64,000 nucleotides of DNA from Planctomycetia bacterium TMED53. Lineage in GTDB: Bacteria; Planctomycetota; UBA8108; UBA1146. The stretch lies in NCBI GenBank assembly GCA_002167285.1, contig NHDG01000067.1, forward strand, positions 88,153 through 152,152, given 5' to 3'. Both the position numbers and the translations under genes were made by a program. How positions within the stretch are numbered: position 1 is the first letter of the stretch; every line of letters starts with the position of its first letter. The notes beneath the pieces are model-generated. The model did no database searches. It saw nothing but the letters and a program-made list of their open reading frames with translations, and was not told the origin of the DNA. This document shows, piece by piece, positions 3,373 to 21,003 of the stretch.

Positions 3373-4434
3373 TTAAGGGGAGACCTCAACGACCGGCAGC
3401 TTTTCCAATCGATCGATCATTCCCCTGACAAATCGATCAGCTCTTCCATGGGCATCGGTGTAGGCGGAAAGGCAAGCAGTGGCTGTCTTTCGATCCTTCG
3501 CTTCGATAGCCCCATCGAAAGCCAAGACCCAAAACGCACGAAACTCCGGATCCGACTCGGAGAGCCGCTGATTGTCACGAACCATCGAATAAGCTCGCTC
3601 GACCGCAACTTGGCGTAACTTTTGGACCTCTTCTTTTTCGGCACCCTCAGAGTACGCCAAGCGATAGGGCGTGAAGGCATCCAGAAAACGAATCCGTGCC
3701 TTTTCTCTGAGCCAGCGGCCGACCAGCTCAGCAGGTACTCCCTCGACCTGGATCGCCGCCTCCATCTCTTCAAGAGAACAGCTCTCAGGATTGAGCAACC
3801 CCAAGATCAGAGTCAGATGCGCCTTGGATAAAGCATCCTCGGGGTTGTCTTTAACCTTTTTCTTGAGAAGAAAAATCGTCTCGACCTCAGCAAGTCCCGC
3901 TTCAAGATTTTCCGGGGTATCGGGTCTCCAGTATGGCTCCTTGCCGAAGAGAACCTGGCCTTCCGCATCCATGATCAGGAAGGTGGGGAATCCCCTGAGT
4001 TCATAAGTCTGCATCATCTGCTGATCCGGCTTATCAGGAAGATTTGCACTGATGTTGAGGTAAGGAACAAATCGCTTCGTCGAAGATTTCCACCAATCGG
4101 ACAGGAGGGGGCCCCCCTCCATGAATTCACATGGCGGTCATGGTGCGTAAGATCGAGTGAAGTAAGCGATGATCGGCATGTTTTTTTCCAACGCCTTCTT
4201 CTTCGCCTCTTCTAAAGTGCCTTCCCATGCGATGGCGCTGACGAAAGTTTTTTTCAACTTCTCTTGGTAGTTCTTCTCCATCCGATCTTCGTCGTTGGAG
4301 TAGATCGGATTTGCATCGCTGTTGGAGTGAGACCCGAGGATCATCAGCACCCCAAGGATGAGTGATAAGGGTGACAACTTTGAAGTGCCACGGATCAAGG
4401 ATCGGTGAGAGTGCATCGGCTCCCCTTTCTTCAT
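3373..4434 (-). CDS. Exported thioredoxin-fold selenoprotein (UxxC) with helical C-terminal region; joins track ORFs 4138-4434 and 3373-4122 through an in-frame TGA at 4138-4140 (start may be 4416)
   Basis: Reads ...IIAYFTRSYAP-TGA-PPCEFMEGG... in one frame; cis-Pro loop RGFPTFLIMD; hydrophobic N-terminal signal; hairpin 3' of the TGA; selB present in the window. Confidence 0.85.
4104..4140 (-). promoter_or_regulatory. Putative bacterial SECIS element
   Basis: TGA followed after 17 nt by GGAGGGG-GGC-CCCCTCC stem-loop with a G-starting apical loop about 24 nt after the UGA. Confidence 0.65.
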
Positions 4435-4616: not shown

Positions 4617-5249
4617 TCAGGCTGCGCTCAGCTCCCTTTCTGCGAATCCACAGGATTGCGCATACTCCAACAACTCGGCTCGTAACCTCTTTCTAGCCCT
4701 AGAGATACGAGATCTTACCGTGCCCAATGGAACCTGTAATTCATGGGCGATTTCGTGGTAAGCCAGCCCATCGAGGTCGCACATCAACAGCGGGATGCGG
4801 AACTCGTCTGGAAGCTGATGAATCGCTTCCCTGACCTGATCTCCGACCAAATCTAGGCTCGGATCGCCGCCATCTTCCAGCCGTTGCAGCTCTTTTTGGA
4901 CCTCCCAAGATCTCTCTGGGGCCACAGGTTGCGTCAAATCGACATCTTCATGGGTCGGACGGCGCATCTTTTTCCTGCACAGATCGTAAAAGCGATTCTT
5001 GCAGATTCTAAAGAGCCAGGAACGGCAATCTGTCCCCTTCGAAAATGAGTCAAATGCCTTCAAGGCCCTCAAAAGGGTATCTTGAAGCAAATCCTCGGCT
5101 CTATTGCGATCACCCGTTAATGAGATCGCAAATGCCGTCAGAGAGTGGATGTGAGGCAAAACCTCTGCGGAAAAGTCGTCTTCCACAACTCCTTTGCCAT
5201 TCTGGAATACGGAATCCCACTCTTCGAAACTGAACATTTTCATGGTCAT
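4617..5249 (-). CDS. ECF RNA polymerase sigma factor, SigR/SigH-like
   Basis: Region 2 AEDLLQDTLLRA...GTDCRSWLFRI; region 4 LPDEFR...GLAYHEIA...GTVRSRISRARKRLR; C-terminal EYAQSCGF resembles SigR. Confidence 0.93.
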   Translation of the reverse strand: MTMKMFSFEEWDSVFQNGKGVVEDDFSAEVLPHIHSLTAFAISLTGDRNRAEDLLQDTLLRALKAFDSFSKGTDCRSWLFRICKNRFYDLCRKKMRRPTHEDVDLTQPVAPERSWEVQKELQRLEDGGDPSLDLVGDQVREAIHQLPDEFRIPLLMCDLDGLAYHEIAHELQVPLGTVRSRISRARKRLRAELLEYAQSCGFAERELSAA

Positions 5250-5306
5250 GGCCCCCTCAACAGTCAAATGGCCACACTTTCAAAAAACTCGGGCAATCGC
5301 GGTTTA

Positions 5307-5425: not shown

Positions 5426-8400
5426 ATGTTCAAAAATCGATCATTTCTCGCTCTGACGGCGACCCAATTCCTCGGTGCGTTCAATGACAACATCTTCAAG
5501 CAGTTCATCCTTTTGATCGCGCTACAGATGAGTCTTGAATACCTACCTCTGGATGCCCAAGCGGTGGCGATGGGGATCTTTGCTTTTCCATTTGTCATGT
5601 TTGCCTGCCTGGGTGGGTCCATCGCCGACCGAGTCCCCAAACGCCGAGTGATCATCCTCGTCAAATTGAGTGAAATCTTCGTCATGATTCTTGGAATGGG
5701 TGCTTTCTTCCTCGCCAAATCTGATCCAGATCTGGGGATCATGGCGATGATGGGCGTTCTCTTCCTCATGGGAACCCAGAGTGCATTCTTCGGTCCGTCA
5801 AAATTTGGAATCATTCCAGAGACGGTCAGTGAATCGAATCTGACCCGAGCAAATGCCATCATCAGCATGACCTCGAACATCGCCATCATCCTTGGAACGA
5901 CATTCGCGGGATTGATGTTCCTCTTCCTCAATCCTGGAGGAGACCTGACCCAGGGTTACCCCAACTGGTACAGCGGCGTCATCTTCATCTTCATCGCGAT
6001 CATCGGCTGGATTTGTGCTCAAAAAATCAAATCCGGAGCAGAAGCGAGTGCACCCCATCGAAAACTGGAGTGGAACCCGATTCATGAGTTGCGTCACCTC
6101 GCGACCGACAAGCCTCTCCTTGGAGCAGTGATCTCCACCGGTTGGTTCTTCCTGATCGGTGCGCTCGCATTGGCCTCCCTCAATGTATGCGGTAAAGAAG
6201 TGTTGTCGTTAGGAGATGGGGGCTCCCGCCTCTTCTTCTTCGTCGCCGGCGGAATCGGCTTGGGCAGCCTATTAGCCAGTAAACTCTCGGGGGACAAGGT
6301 CGAGATCGGCATCGTTCCCGTAGGGGGAATTTTGATGACCGCCGGCTTTGCCCTGACCACCATCGTCGAAGAAACGCTGCTCGGTTACGGATCAACGCTG
6401 ACGATCGCCGGAATTGGCGGCGGCATGTTCTTGGTACCTCTTGTCGCATACATCCAAGAACGCTCCCGCGGAGAGGAGCGGGGGAAAATCCAAGGTGCCT
6501 CTGAATTCGTCACCTTTTCCTTCATCTTCATGTCCGCACTCGTATGGGACTTTTTCGTCAACACCAACATGCTCGCCCTGAGCCCGGAAGGCACTCTACT
6601 GGCGATCGCTGTGCTGGCATTGACGGGAACACTGGGTGTCTTCTTTGCCGTCCCCCACATCGCCGTGCGATTCCCGGTTTGGATCCTCGTACACACTCTC
6701 TATCGGATTCGAATCCTTGGTATGGAAAACGTTCCACGCCGCGGAGGAGCATTGCTGGTCGTCAATCACTTGTCCTACGCAGATCCATTCCTCGTCGGAG
6801 CCTCGATCCCTCGCTTTGTACATTTCCTTATGCATCGTCAATTCAAGGACATGGGGCTCATCGGTTGGGCAAGCCATCTGATGCGCGCGATACCGGTCTC
6901 CAGTGATGATGGCCCCCGTGCCATCATCCAGTCCTTAGAAAACGCAGCCGAGCACGCTCGCAATGGAAACATCGTCTGCATCTTCGCTGAGGGGGGGATT
7001 TCTAGAACCGGTAACTTACTGCCATTCTCGAAAGGCCTCGAAAAGATTGCCCGAAAAGCGGACGTTCCCATCATTCCGGTCTACCTCGATCGGGTCTGGG
7101 GCAGCATCTTTTCATTCCGCGGTAAAAAATTCTTCTTCAAACGTCCGCTGCGATTGCCATACCCGGTCACTGTCACCATCGGTGAGCCGATGGCTCCCGA
7201 TTCCACCGCCCGACAAGTCCGTTCGCGAGTGGAAGAGCTGAGTGCTCTCGCCCTCGATTCACGCAAACAAAAGGGAATCACCCTCGCCACCCGCTTCCTC
7301 ACGGTTGCTCGAAAATCTAGTGGCAGAACTGCGGTTATCGAAAAAGATCGCCGCCTCTCATTCCGCAAATTTCTAATTCTTGTGCTGCTCCTACGAAGGA
7401 AACTGCGCAAGCGATTAGAGGGACAACAGAATATCGGGGTGATTCTTCCCTCCGGAGTCGGCGGCGCTGCGATCAACATCGCTCTGACCGTCATGGGAAA
7501 AACGGTCAGTAATCTGAATTTCACCGCCGGCACAGCGTCGCTGAAATCTGCTTGTGAACAGTTAGAGCTAAAGACCATCATTTCAGCAAAGATGTTCACC
7601 AGCAAAATTGATATGGACATCTCAGAATTCGCGCCCGATGTCGAAGTCATCGACCTTCCCGCATTGCTGACACGCGAGGTCTCCACCGGGGACAAGATCA
7701 TGGCGATGCTCACAGCTTTACTGCCATCGACTTTCTTGCGCTCTCTGCCAGGAGTTCCCCAAGATCCAGATCAAGATGTTTCAATCATGTTCTCATCAGG
7801 ATCTACTGGCACGCCCAAGGGAGTGCGACTCTCACACCACAACATCCTTTCGAATGTGCGTAGTGTTTCACAAATCTTTGATGTCGATCACAAAGATCGG
7901 GTCGTCGGCTCTCTGCCCTTCTTCCATGTCTTTGGTTACACCATCACTCTTTGGTTCCCCCTTGGAAATGCGATCGGCGCCATCTATCACAATAATCCGA
8001 TGGACACCGACATCATCGCCGAGCTCACCAGAGATCACAAAGGCACGATCTTCCTGTCAACACCGACCTTCTACAGAACCTACCTGCGACGCTTCCAACC
8101 GGAAGATTTCCAATCGGTTCGGATCGCAGGTGCTGGAGCAGAGAAGCTGAAAGCGAGTCTTGCCGAAGCTTGGGAGGAGCGCTTCGGCTCACCACTCCTT
8201 GAAGGTTATGGCTGTACCGAACTGAGCCCGGTGGTATCGGTGAATCTTCCAGATATCGATGTACCCGGATTCCGTCACAAGACCCGCAAACTAGGAACCA
8301 TCGGGCTTCCAATTCCAGGTGTAGTCACCCGCGTCGTTGATCCAGAAACAGGAGAAGATCTCCCCCATGGGGAAGCAGGCCTACTTCTGATTAAAGGCCC

Positions 8401-8890
8401 CAGTGTGATGCAAGGATACCTGGGCAGGGATGACCTCACCGCAGAAGCGTTCGACGGAGAATGGTACAAGACCGGAGACATCGCCAAGGTCGACGAGGAT
8501 GGCTTCCTCGTCATCACCGACCGCTTGTCTCGATTCTCTAAACTCGGCGGCGAAATGGTCCCCCATGTGCTGATTGAAGAAGCCATCCAAGAAATCATCG
8601 ACGCTGCGATTCCCGATGAGGAGGAAACGGATGGCGAAGCGATGGTCGCTGTGACAGCAGTTCCCGATGAATCAAAAGGGGAAAAGCTCGTGGTCGTTCA
8701 TGGCGAACTCCCCATCGACCCTCCCGAAATCCTCGAAAGCTTGAGAACCCGTGGGGACTTGCCTAATCTCTGGCTGCCCCGAAAAGAAGCATTCGTGCCT
8801 GTCGCGGAGGTCCCACGCCTGGGATCAGGAAAACTGGATTTGAAAGCGGTCAAAAACCTGGCCCTCGATCACTTCGGAATCGGCGGTTGA
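5426..8890 (+). CDS. aas: Acyl-ACP synthetase / 2-acylglycerophosphoethanolamine acyltransferase fused to an LplT-like MFS domain
   Basis: N-terminal MFS (TQFLGAFNDN), PlsC motifs NHLSYAD and FAEGGISRTG, AMP-binding FSSGSTGTPKGV, EGYGCTE, YKTGD. Confidence 0.92.
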   Translation: MFKNRSFLALTATQFLGAFNDNIFKQFILLIALQMSLEYLPLDAQAVAMGIFAFPFVMFACLGGSIADRVPKRRVIILVKLSEIFVMILGMGAFFLAKSDPDLGIMAMMGVLFLMGTQSAFFGPSKFGIIPETVSESNLTRANAIISMTSNIAIILGTTFAGLMFLFLNPGGDLTQGYPNWYSGVIFIFIAIIGWICAQKIKSGAEASAPHRKLEWNPIHELRHLATDKPLLGAVISTGWFFLIGALALASLNVCGKEVLSLGDGGSRLFFFVAGGIGLGSLLASKLSGDKVEIGIVPVGGILMTAGFALTTIVEETLLGYGSTLTIAGIGGGMFLVPLVAYIQERSRGEERGKIQGASEFVTFSFIFMSALVWDFFVNTNMLALSPEGTLLAIAVLALTGTLGVFFAVPHIAVRFPVWILVHTLYRIRILGMENVPRRGGALLVVNHLSYADPFLVGASIPRFVHFLMHRQFKDMGLIGWASHLMRAIPVSSDDGPRAIIQSLENAAEHARNGNIVCIFAEGGISRTGNLLPFSKGLEKIARKADVPIIPVYLDRVWGSIFSFRGKKFFFKRPLRLPYPVTVTIGEPMAPDSTARQVRSRVEELSALALDSRKQKGITLATRFLTVARKSSGRTAVIEKDRRLSFRKFLILVLLLRRKLRKRLEGQQNIGVILPSGVGGAAINIALTVMGKTVSNLNFTAGTASLKSACEQLELKTIISAKMFTSKIDMDISEFAPDVEVIDLPALLTREVSTGDKIMAMLTALLPSTFLRSLPGVPQDPDQDVSIMFSSGSTGTPKGVRLSHHNILSNVRSVSQIFDVDHKDRVVGSLPFFHVFGYTITLWFPLGNAIGAIYHNNPMDTDIIAELTRDHKGTIFLSTPTFYRTYLRRFQPEDFQSVRIAGAGAEKLKASLAEAWEERFGSPLLEGYGCTELSPVVSVNLPDIDVPGFRHKTRKLGTIGLPIPGVVTRVVDPETGEDLPHGEAGLLLIKGPSVMQGYLGRDDLTAEAFDGEWYKTGDIAKVDEDGFLVITDRLSRFSKLGGEMVPHVLIEEAIQEIIDAAIPDEEETDGEAMVAVTAVPDESKGEKLVVVHGELPIDPPEILESLRTRGDLPNLWLPRKEAFVPVAEVPRLGSGKLDLKAVKNLALDHFGIGG

Positions 8891-19063: not shown

Positions 19064-21003
19064 GAGAGTTCCGCCAACTTTTCATGATTCACTTCCCTGC
19101 GATCCTCTCGACGTCGGGTCCACCCCTGCTTGTCGAGGTGCTCCAGCAAGGGGATGGCAAATTTCCGAGTCGTTCCCAAGAGGTCCTTCGCTTCCGATGC
19201 ACTGAAGGGCCCTGAAGTTTCATGGTGGGCAGCTAGGCGCCTGACCGCTTCAAGAATCGCTTCTTCCAAGAGAACGACATCAGGGGTCAATCGCACCAAC
19301 TCACCCCGATCGACCAATAGAGATTGAAGTTTGCTAAGGAGAGCTTCGGTGGTTCCGAACTCCGGTGCCAAATCCTCATTTCGCCCAGCTTCAAATAGGT
19401 TTCCTGCCAGATAGTTACGGTACTTCTCCAGCACTGCTCTTTCAGCTTCCGGAATAGGCGGTTCAAAATCTGGAATAGAAAGCCTTCCACCACGCAATCT
19501 ATCAAGACGGCCCTCTGCGACCAAACTTTCATAAACCGCTTCAAGAAAACCATCTTCGAGTCGAAGTGCATCGCGAATTTCAAGGGCCTTCACCGATACA
19601 CGATAAGGGTCTTGGCGGAATACTGTCTCGATGGCACCGGTGATACGCTCACCTGCCATTCTCATTCCCTCTTGAACCAACCAACGACCACCTTGCAAAG
19701 AAGTGACCTCACCAGCTGAAGCGAGTTCTTCAAGATACTCGGCAACCTGCTCCTGGGTGACGGTCATACGACGTGACAATTCTTCGGTCGTGTGAATCTC
19801 CAGTAATGCATCCTGAAGAAGACTGCGTAAATAATCTTGTGGGCTGTCGAGTGCTGTCATCTTTCGCCGTACCGATTCGACGACAAAATCTTTACCGGTC
19901 TTCAGGCGCCAGCGAGAACGGTCGAGAATTTCTCCACCACCCAGGGTGATCATCGGCGAAGTTTGACGCAGGACGAAGCGATCACCAGGAGCGACGACGA
20001 CCGGCTCCTCCAGCCGAATCTGTGCCACCGCCTCTTCCCCCGGTTCCAAACTGGTGCAATCGAGCAGGTACAGGCGCCCGACCGCTTCTGTCGTGCCCTG
20101 CAAAAACCGAATCGGCATTCGATGGGTTAACGGTTGAGACAAACCTGACAGGGACCGCAAGCTGACTTCGAGCATCTCGGTTGCGGTAAAATAGCCCGGT
20201 GTTGCAGCCACCATTCCTCGACTCAGGTCCTTATAATTGACATCCGCCAAGTTAATCGCTGTCGAATGACCGGCACGTGCACGATCCACTGTTACTTTGT
20301 AGGCTTGCAAGCCGCGAACCCTACCTTGATGTTCGCCAGGAAGAATCTCCAATCGATCATCCTTGGCTACAGCTCCACTTACAGGAACACCGGTGATGAC
20401 TGTCCCGTGCCCCTTCGAGGAAAAAACCCTCTGGATCGGTAAGCGAAAAACACCTTCCGTATCCCGAGATGGCAATTCGCCAATGATGCCGATGACTTCA
20501 TCACGTAATGCGTCGATCCCATCGCCGGTCTCAGCACTCACCCTGAGCATAGGAGCATCCTCGAGGAAGGTCCCTTGCACCGTTTCACGAATTTCTTCCT
20601 CGACCAACTCCAGCATCTCGCTATCGACTAAGTCGATCTTATTGATGGCGATCACTCCGCGCTCAACTCCGAGGAGGGTCATGATGGCGAGGTGCTCCAA
20701 AGTTTGAGGCATCACTGAATCGTCTGCGGCAACCACCAAAACGACTAAATCGATGCCGCTGGCCCCAGCGACCATGTTGCGGATAAATTTTTCGTGGCCA
20801 GGAACATCGATGATCCCTACCAGCTCACCCCCCGGCAGCTTCATCGGCGCAAAACCAAGATCGATGGTCAATCCGCGATCTTTCTCCTCAGGGAGCCGAT
20901 CTGGGTCAATCCCCGTCAAACGGCGCACTAAAGACGACTTTCCATGGTCGATATGTCCGGCGGTGCCGACAACGACACCGAAAATGCTGTCTTCTGTGGC
21001 CAA
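19060..21003 (-). CDS. selB: Selenocysteine-specific translation elongation factor
   Basis: GTAGHIDHGKS, RLPEEKDRGLTIDLGFA, DVPGHEKF, C-terminal winged helix TRKFAIPLLEHLD; start likely TTG 21003. Confidence 0.96.
   Translation of the reverse strand: MATEDSIFGVVVGTAGHIDHGKSSLVRRLTGIDPDRLPEEKDRGLTIDLGFAPMKLPGGELVGIIDVPGHEKFIRNMVAGASGIDLVVLVVAADDSVMPQTLEHLAIMTLLGVERGVIAINKIDLVDSEMLELVEEEIRETVQGTFLEDAPMLRVSAETGDGIDALRDEVIGIIGELPSRDTEGVFRLPIQRVFSSKGHGTVITGVPVSGAVAKDDRLEILPGEHQGRVRGLQAYKVTVDRARAGHSTAINLADVNYKDLSRGMVAATPGYFTATEMLEVSLRSLSGLSQPLTHRMPIRFLQGTTEAVGRLYLLDCTSLEPGEEAVAQIRLEEPVVVAPGDRFVLRQTSPMITLGGGEILDRSRWRLKTGKDFVVESVRRKMTALDSPQDYLRSLLQDALLEIHTTEELSRRMTVTQEQVAEYLEELASAGEVTSLQGGRWLVQEGMRMAGERITGAIETVFRQDPYRVSVKALEIRDALRLEDGFLEAVYESLVAEGRLDRLRGGRLSIPDFEPPIPEAERAVLEKYRNYLAGNLFEAGRNEDLAPEFGTTEALLSKLQSLLVDRGELVRLTPDVVLLEEAILEAVRRLAAHHETSGPFSASEAKDLLGTTRKFAIPLLEHLDKQGWTRRREDRREVNHEKLAELS

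Follow-up and report, generated by a model that had tools for sequence, protein, structure and literature searches.

The stretch of DNA analysed here (the window) comprises 64,000 nucleotides of contig NHDG01000067.1 from the metagenome-assembled genome (MAG) of Planctomycetia bacterium TMED53, positions 88,153 to 152,152 of the forward strand. On its minus strand, two listed open reading frames (ORFs) of 98 and 249 amino acids (4138..4434 and 3373..4122) lie in the same frame and are separated by the bases TGA CCG CCA TGT GAA TTC. If the TGA is read as selenocysteine (Sec, U), both merge into a single 353-residue product containing ...AYFTRSYAP-U-PPC-EFMEGGPLLSDWW...; in the RNA, a putative selenocysteine insertion sequence (SECIS) lies downstream of the UGA. 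The reading favoured here, to which a probability of roughly 0.85 is assigned, is that 4434..3373 constitutes one gene for an exported selenoprotein with Sec at its active site. The features of this locus are as follows, all on the minus strand of the window:

3373..4434, minus: complete predicted selenoprotein gene, 353 codons plus a TAA stop at 3373-3375.
4324..4434, minus: putative signal peptide, residues 1-37, with a basic n-region, a 15-residue hydrophobic core (L20-G34) and the small residues S-H-S, recognised by eye.
3910..4299, minus: thioredoxin-fold domain, residues ~46-175, of the Thioredoxin_7/DsbH/DsbD-gamma type.
4138..4140, minus: UGA codon 99, conserved across relatives, predicted Sec and first residue of the U-P-P-C redox motif.
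4129..4131, minus: TGT codon for Cys102, predicted resolving cysteine of U-P-P-C, in a column that is at least 90% invariant in the family alignment.
4104..4120, minus: upper SECIS stem-loop, a 7-bp stem (GGAGGGG/CCCCUCC) with the apical loop GGC, starting 17 nt past the UGA.
4090..4137, minus: extended SECIS helix, in which a lower stem of CCGCCA (4132-4137) and UGGUGG (4090-4095) encloses the upper hairpin, as in both the minimum free energy (MFE) and the centroid fold.
3403..3915, minus: C-terminal all-helical domain, residues ~174-344, eight helices, tetratricopeptide repeat (TPR)-like, with a predicted local distance difference test score (pLDDT) of 94.9 when folded alone.

A sequence-only reading of the window had proposed much of this arrangement. 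The two ORFs that it described as sharing one frame across the 18 bases given above are confirmed, and the UGA that it placed at the first cysteine of a thioredoxin CxxC motif is found there upon translation (...AYFTRSYAP-U-PPC-EFMEGGPLL...). Likewise, its signal or anchor sequence corresponds to a run of 15 hydrophobic residues preceded by basic ones, its helical C-terminal domain to a C-terminal half predicted as all-helical, and its GGAGGGG/CCCCTCC hairpin at SECIS-like distance to the element at 4104-4120, which fits the published constraints for bacterial SECIS (bSECIS) elements. The expected misannotation as two hypothetical genes is mirrored by public records: in a word-indexed protein database, the close relatives are 'hypothetical proteins' of 247-258 aa from Planctomycetota MAGs that start just past the TGA and thus cover only the part behind it. 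For the first codon of the gene, Met7 (4416) is an alternative that gives a better fit to the N-terminus of the closest orthologue. An assembly error at the UGA codon can be dismissed, because a DNA contig from an independent run, spanning 3934-4222, shows no difference at 4138-4140.

The first line of evidence is the conservation of this codon. A six-frame search of 41 related genomes gave matches in 33, and 58 of the 61 listed matches carry one in-frame TGA within a single alignment that extends from about residue 45 to 346. In the 20 best loci, which represent orthologues, the TGA invariably occupies the codon aligned to residue 99 (20/20), in the context P-I-[IL]-A-Y-F-T-R-S-Y-[AS]-P-U-[PG]-P-C. 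Of the remaining 41 matches, 40 were taken as further relatives, with omission of one fragment at a contig start. Here, 36 of 40 have TGA at the site, two of which belong to a more distant thioredoxin-like group with the motif D-W-U-G-W-C; among the other four, one shows TGG and lacks the second cysteine as well (W-P-P-S), and three distant ones have Cys codons within C-G-[WF]-C. The D-W-U-G-W-C pair (L072 and L075; G040:C103 and G034:C7) belongs to a more distant Thioredoxin_7-like group, in another family of the same class, whose Cys counterparts with C-G-[WF]-C are found in L071, L073 and L074. No hairpin is present at the corresponding place in L072 and L075, and any SECIS element of theirs must lie elsewhere.

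A scan of one genome per species was based on the peptide pattern that precedes the site and was hence blind to the codon itself. It revealed 159 relatives, of which 80 loci from other genomes were kept for inspection of the codon and the other 79 were left out. The pattern is followed by TGA in 81 of its 82 occurrences and by TGC in a single one (L144). The same TGA codon thus persists even in lineages of only about 30% identity, flanked on both sides by conserved protein sequence, although the relatives are not independent of each other and these counts overstate the number of independent events. This agrees with the check on homologues that the sequence-only reading had proposed, in which Cys codons or conservation of the TGA would speak for Sec, and paralogues ending in TRSY[AS]P-TGA, for which it had suggested a scan, do occur in related genomes. 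In the source genome, which is 83% complete and distributed over 125 contigs, no second copy was found, leaving a single copy only. A reassigned genetic code was considered and ruled out, because TGA is the commonest stop in the window and terminates 20 of its 35 ORFs of at least 250 aa; the adjoining hflX gene also ends in TGA.

The second line of evidence is provided by the hairpin. Published bSECIS constraints comprise an apical loop of 3-9 nt, an upper stem of 4-16 bp, an MFE of -7.5 kcal/mol or lower, a G in the first two loop positions that is usually followed by G or U, and a distance of 16-37 nt between UGA and loop, according to the accessible text of the source (PMC13188914). The element in the window agrees with these values, featuring a 7-bp stem, the loop GGC, a UGA-to-loop spacing of 24 nt and -13.5 kcal/mol for a 30-nt piece. 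When 50 distinct TGA-bearing sequences are aligned without gaps, each of the seven core pairs can form in 44-50 of them, and compensatory GC>CG, GC>AU and GC>GU changes are seen. The lower stem appears less well supported in the same alignment than the upper one, as five of its six pairs form in 41-46 of the 50 sequences and the sixth in 10 (75% of cells overall).

Synonymous recoding points in the same direction. For 44 TGA-bearing family sequences, each recoded 300 times with the codon usage of the window, the native hairpin equals or surpasses 95% of the recodings in stability in 35 sequences and 83% of them in all 44, with native values of -7.9 to -16.5 kcal/mol compared with recoded means of -4.2 to -8.7. 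In the paralogue with TGG at the site, the hairpin reaches only -3.7 kcal/mol (77th percentile of its recodings), and among the 80 loci the single TGC (Cys) locus has a weak hairpin of -5.1 kcal/mol versus -7.9 to -18.9 at the TGA sites. Hairpins with G-first loops at a similar distance also follow the UGA in selD and in the DsbD-like selenoprotein gene candidate of the same genome. Rfam (at gathering thresholds) and ARAGORN found nothing across the window; Rfam is not known to include a general bacterial SECIS model.

The third line of evidence is the presence of the machinery for Sec insertion. The selB gene that the sequence-only reading had noticed in the window is confirmed, and the components that it expected elsewhere in the genome (selA, selC, selD) are found on contig C8; tRNA-Sec, SelA, SelB and SelD all score above their curated cut-offs:

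19099..20976 (G000:C96:107251-109128), minus: selB, for the Sec-specific elongation factor, TIGR00475 at 360.4 bits versus a cut-off of 242, about 15 kb from the selenoprotein gene.
Contig C8: tRNA-Sec, 67.5 bits, ARAGORN anticodon tca.
Contig C8: selA, 526 bits.
Contig C8: selD, 350 bits, with an in-frame TGA of its own.

The three genes on C8 are clustered within C8:19228-21927 (loci L001, L009 and L017). Since selD itself contains an in-frame TGA (...C-A-G-U-A-A-K...), the Sec pathway of this bacterium depends on its own product. Two further ORFs of the genome are of relevance. One (L164, G000:C77:22245-23456) is DsbD-like: its DsbD_TM match (88 bits) precedes a Thioredoxin_7-type domain that contains an in-frame TGA in ...F-T-G-H-T-U-Q-N-C..., with a 12-bp hairpin downstream; judged from these features, it probably encodes a Sec-containing DsbD. 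The other (L163, G000:C81:12104-12358) matches Thioredoxin_7 with 35.9 bits and has an in-frame TGA in ...E-A-P-G-U-L-G-C..., which makes it a candidate for a third UxxC thioredoxin-like selenoprotein of the source genome.

Homologous proteins also reveal which residues take the place of Sec. Three longer proteins in the word-indexed database span the site, two with C-P-P-C (P0020 and P0021) and one with W-P-P-S. A profile search of a representative library of 1.8 billion proteins (50% identity) gave 223 matches at E <= 1e-30, and 148 of the best 150 were analysed; the two left out (P0006 and P0018) are further truncated forms. While 35 of the 148 begin just past the Sec position, as expected of miscalled Sec forms, 113 include the N-terminal part. 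Of the latter, 73 carry Cys there, in 67 cases as CxxC and most commonly as CPPC, and these Cys homologues are single ORFs. The remaining 40 harbor Ser, Trp or other residues, frequently with the second cysteine gone as well. Such a pattern, with Sec and Cys alternating at the nucleophilic position and activity lost in some branches, is classical for redox families.

The sequence-only reading had held that Trp, Arg or another non-Cys residue at this position would point toward a simple nonsense mutation. Trp does occur in five homologues, four with W..S or W..T and one with WPPC, among them L062 (G026:C66), P0019, P0022 and P0027; these form a separate paralogue group, not nonsense variants of the Sec form. 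L062, the sole copy for which DNA is at hand, uses TGG, and it is also the locus in which the downstream hairpin is lost. From their motif, the W-P-P-S/T members look redox-dead and may retain only a binding function.

Sequence and predicted structure of the protein fit an exported thioredoxin-fold enzyme with an additional domain. The N-terminus resembles a signal peptide of the general secretory (Sec-type) route, suggesting export to the periplasm, and in the alignment the orthologues end this region in A-x-A-Q ahead of acidic residues. An AlphaFold2 model built from a 46-sequence alignment has a pLDDT of 91.0 and a predicted template modelling score (pTM) of 0.80, with the chain continuous across residue 99 and a low pLDDT in the signal peptide. 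In this model, a strand (88-94) leads to a helix (100-106) that begins around U99 and C102, and the loop around Pro150 (RGFPTF; codon 3985-3987), which is invariant in the alignment, takes the place of the thioredoxin cis-Pro. Compared with solved structures, the thioredoxin domain matches 61 chains at Z >= 8; the best 50 of these 61 (Z 8.3-12.5) are mostly thioredoxin-family proteins, in which DsbH is followed by DUF255-type domains, DsbD-gamma and ERp18/AGR proteins as closest relatives. For the helical domain, the best structural Z is 8.0 in a list of mostly TPR proteins, no Pfam family matched, and no Foldseek match below E 0.2 was found. An annexin identity, indicated by a PDB profile match with E 0.0027, looks spurious and was rejected.

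Several observations weigh against the interpretation as an exported thioredoxin-fold selenoprotein and deserve to be set out together. All genomes involved are metagenome-assembled, and the case for Sec is built on sequence comparison. RNA library contigs, which like the DNA contig speak for the presence of the gene in nature, flank the TGA on both sides, and contigs of two metatranscriptome runs fall on parts of the gene, but none spans the UGA with 31 nt to either side and DNA carry-over is possible; stretches left uncovered in some sequencing runs carry no meaning. The window protein alone scores only 17 bits (E 0.0068) against Pfam Thioredoxin_7 (PF13899), for which the gathering cut-off is 27, and the similarity of its helical domain to TPR proteins (Z <= 8) does not exceed what common helical arrangements can give. 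The 80 loci show no conserved operon partner. With respect to the hairpin, the 59-nt stretch taken alone has a z of -1.38, and 15 of 200 shuffles fold as well, which is unexceptional for its G/C-rich composition. The covariation score (0.163 versus 0.105 +/- 0.008 in shuffles, reached by 0 of 500, and dropping once the partners are slid) was obtained with a shuffle control that leaves relatedness in, and relatedness alone can beat shuffles. Finally, the hairpin overlaps the conserved codons M/L-E-G-G-P-L, and its conservation is partly a protein constraint.

Since the single-sequence fold is not exceptional, the argument for the hairpin is a comparative one. Here, distant paralogues are more telling than the covariation score: their peptide changes to E-S-G-P-L-S, E-S-G-T-L-S or E-N-G-L-F-S, and a perfect stem of 7-8 bp is rebuilt from other bases. 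As for the fold, 35 of 46 family members match Thioredoxin_7 at E <= 0.01, the best of them with 2.9e-10, and scores of up to 36 bits place Cys relatives above the cut-off. By profile comparison, the family is hence a divergent Thioredoxin_7 branch of which the window protein alone is sub-threshold.

On this basis, a sequence of events can be proposed. At UGA99, SelB loaded with Sec-tRNA(Sec) would bind the stem-loop that starts 17 nt downstream, and Sec would be inserted instead of termination, as the comparative evidence suggests. The signal peptide would then direct the protein across the inner membrane. As alignment and the confident model show, the mature protein has a DsbH/DsbD-gamma-type fold with Sec99 as attacking and Cys102 as resolving residue opposite the invariant P150 loop. 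In the most likely mechanism, the helical domain would hold an envelope protein whose disulfide or sulfenylated cysteine is attacked by the selenolate, whereupon Cys102 would resolve the mixed selenenylsulfide. The oxidized Se-S center may finally be re-reduced by the membrane DsbD-like protein (U-Q-N-C) of the same genome. The product is thus most likely a periplasmic selenol/thiol disulfide reductase or isomerase, an assignment favored because its nearest relatives, DsbH and DsbD-gamma, are reductants and because Sec is predicted at the attacking position. The results fix no direction of catalysis among reductase, isomerase and oxidase, which has to be counted among the points against this assignment.

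A different role for the same Sec protein would be that of a holdase-reductase in oxidant defence, i. e. a periplasmic counterpart of the chaperedoxin CnoX/YbbN, in which the TPR-like domain holds unfolded clients while the Sec center forms and resolves mixed bonds with their oxidized cysteines. The top Foldseek matches of the whole model are indeed YbbN of E. coli (3qou, E 6.3e-5) and the homologue from Salmonella (3qdn), which likewise consist of a thioredoxin domain followed by TPR-type helical repeats, and the C-terminal domain superimposes on the TPR part of 3qdn with Z 6.4 and a root-mean-square deviation (rmsd) of 4.2 A over 86 residues. Yet, the domain types match and the assembly does not (TM-scores of 0.21-0.25, rmsd of ~21 A), the Z values are in a range common for helical repeats, and YbbN/CnoX is absent from the PDB profile matches listed at E <= 1. 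Moreover, CnoX is a cytoplasmic protein, whereas the window protein has a signal peptide and Sec. The likeness to YbbN/CnoX, as far as the models go, would therefore be one of architecture, not demonstrated homology, and this role is considered unlikely, if still the best of the alternatives.

Even less probable is a dedicated maturation pathway, in which the protein would, for example, keep the haem-binding cysteines of apocytochrome c reduced, as a fusion of a ResA/CcmG-like reductase with a CcmI/NrfG-like TPR chaperone. The TPR of a haem-lyase partner is found among the weak matches (NrfG 2e2e, E 0.56), and the exported thioredoxin domain 3f9u, related to cytochrome c biogenesis, matches with Z 11.0. 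These structural matches are weak and generic, though, cytochrome c maturation genes are missing nearby, and the occurrence of up to four paralogues per genome and of tandem arrays argues against one housekeeping role.

The last two alternatives concern the codon itself. UGA might be read through without Sec, by near-cognate insertion of Trp, Cys or Arg or by local recoding that does not involve SelB, and a stable hairpin after a stop codon can itself promote such read-through. This is very improbable in view of the complete Sec machinery of the genome, the agreement of the hairpin with the bSECIS model and the position of the codon at the nucleophilic Cys of CxxC, paired with Cys in homologues, which is a signature of Sec and not of leaky termination. 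That the TGA is a true stop, either in a nonsense-broken gene or between two small genes, as gene callers and public records have it and as the usual stop of this genome would allow, is hardly credible given its conservation together with the protein on both sides, a split that would cut the thioredoxin fold at its active site when the read-through model is one confident domain, and the existence of the Cys homologues as single ORFs.

Coming back to the exported selenoprotein, its distribution suggests a family of considerable size. A profile search at E <= 1e-15 identified members in 65 of 251 sampled Planctomycetota genomes, corresponding to 54 of 203 genera. Among the 104 matches in the phylum, 91 have an in-frame TGA (anywhere in the match), 12 lack a stop and one has TAG only; several copies per genome are frequent, with up to four paralogues. 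Tandem arrays of two or three copies were observed at G259:C29:12284-15630, G223:C40:22997-25049, G164:C181:17564-19512 and G260:C79:7037-9096, and in G260 a stop-free copy (presumably with Cys) adjoins a TGA copy. The named loci stem almost exclusively from Planctomycetota MAGs, and most of their names, as well as the sequencing runs that hold the window, refer to marine water, with one locus from Lake Baikal and one run from a subsurface metagenome as exceptions. Typical members also occur in MAGs labelled as Bacillota, Proteobacteria and Gemmatimonadota (L097, L122 and L123), which may be mislabelled or mis-binned, or may reflect transfer.

The gene neighborhood provides no lead to the function. 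A gene for a sigma factor of the extracytoplasmic function (ECF) type (Sigma70_r2 + r4_2; window 4617-5267, minus strand) is located 183 nt upstream on the same strand. This linkage is kept in only 7 of the 80 loci, all of them close relatives, so co-regulation with the sigma factor gene is possible but not a trait of the family. An anti-sigma role was considered and rejected, given the mere ~19 residues ahead of the hydrophobic segment and the lack of a conserved linkage. Downstream, hflX is found in convergent orientation in 17 of the 80 loci, and genes for arginase, NUDIX and Topo VI-B adjoin paralogues. Further away, a 1154-aa ORF (window 5426-8890, plus strand) resembles by eye a fusion of membrane transporter, acyltransferase and AMP-dependent ligase, which we take to be akin to lysophospholipid transporter/acyl-ACP synthetase fusions.

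Conceivably, though this is a speculative and rather unlikely scenario, Planctomycetota operate a selenium-based periplasmic relay, in which the Sec-containing DsbD-like transporter (U-Q-N-C) feeds a diversified set of exported Sec 'chaperedoxins'. If so, the TPR-like domains could each select a class of envelope clients whose oxidized cysteines are repaired by the Sec-Cys center, and the relay would represent a periplasmic, selenium-dependent analogue of CnoX that was hidden because its members are annotated as two fragments. Irrespective of this scenario, no NCBIfam or Pfam model captures the family, and a curated one would correct many genome annotations and lead to higher estimates of how much marine Planctomycetota make use of selenium. 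In addition, the natural series of Sec, Cys and inactive forms, including adjacent Sec and Cys copies, offers access to the question why Sec is preferred in an oxidizing compartment.

As regards prior knowledge, a 2026 inventory lists 119 prokaryotic selenoprotein families, several of them UxxC thioredoxin-like (PMC13188914, Table 1), and in the accessible part of this source no family with the present signature or architecture is recognisable by name. In Table S9 of a 2016 planctomycete genome paper (PMC4807772), selenoprotein candidates appear in split form under the names 'thiol-disulfide isomerase-like thioredoxin' and 'hypothetical'; these may or may not be members, as no sequences accompany them there. 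The Global Ocean Sampling (GOS) study, from what is accessible of it, defined large 'Trx-like 1-3' groups that might include members. Literature searches, with the GOS supplementary alignments outside their scope, turned up no paper describing the family. NCBIfam release 20 gave sub-threshold matches only, to DsbH (NF043050, see below) and TsoB (NF045694; 15.9 versus a cut-off of 805 bits), with no other model at E <= 1, and the GOS_C/Omp28_seleno model NF045500 had no match at the window locus in a search of the genome. In Pfam, the window protein stays under the cut-offs of both PF13098 and PF13899.

Among solved thioredoxin proteins, the closest relative is DsbH, the periplasmic disulfide reductase of Chlamydia (PDB 2ju5), with a profile E of 4.9e-8 and a structural match of Z 12.5 (rmsd 2.4 A over 115 residues, 22% identity). 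Both proteins are exported, but DsbH is a single-domain Cys protein, whereas the window protein features Sec, a P-P dipeptide and the extra helical domain; with 21.7 bits versus a cut-off of 190 for the DsbH equivalog NF043050, it is no DsbH orthologue. The gamma domain of DsbD (1vrs_D) shares the Thioredoxin_7-type fold (Z 10.4, rmsd 2.9 A over 111 residues) and, like the window protein, belongs to the CxxC-type periplasmic relays of reducing power. DsbD-gamma is tethered to a membrane electron transporter, in contrast to the window protein, which would be soluble or anchored by its signal sequence only. For the latter, a role as recipient of electrons from DsbD is more likely than one as part of it.

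The nearest counterparts are the UxxC thioredoxin-fold selenoproteins, predicted from genome and marine metagenome data, that are referred to as 'Trx-like 1-3' and 'thiol:disulfide interchange protein' (PMC2398784, PMC13188914). According to the accessible text of these sources, they have in common with the window family Sec as the first residue of UxxC, the existence of Cys homologues, a bSECIS element just 3' of the UGA and an origin in marine bacteria. The window family is distinguished by its signature Y-F-T-R-S-Y-[AS]-P-U-[PG]-P-C and a TPR-like C-terminal domain of ~170 residues, although its members may have been lumped into a 'Trx-like' group. UxxC thioredoxin-fold selenoproteins as such are well known and their chemistry is no surprise; what is new is the family itself and its wide spread.

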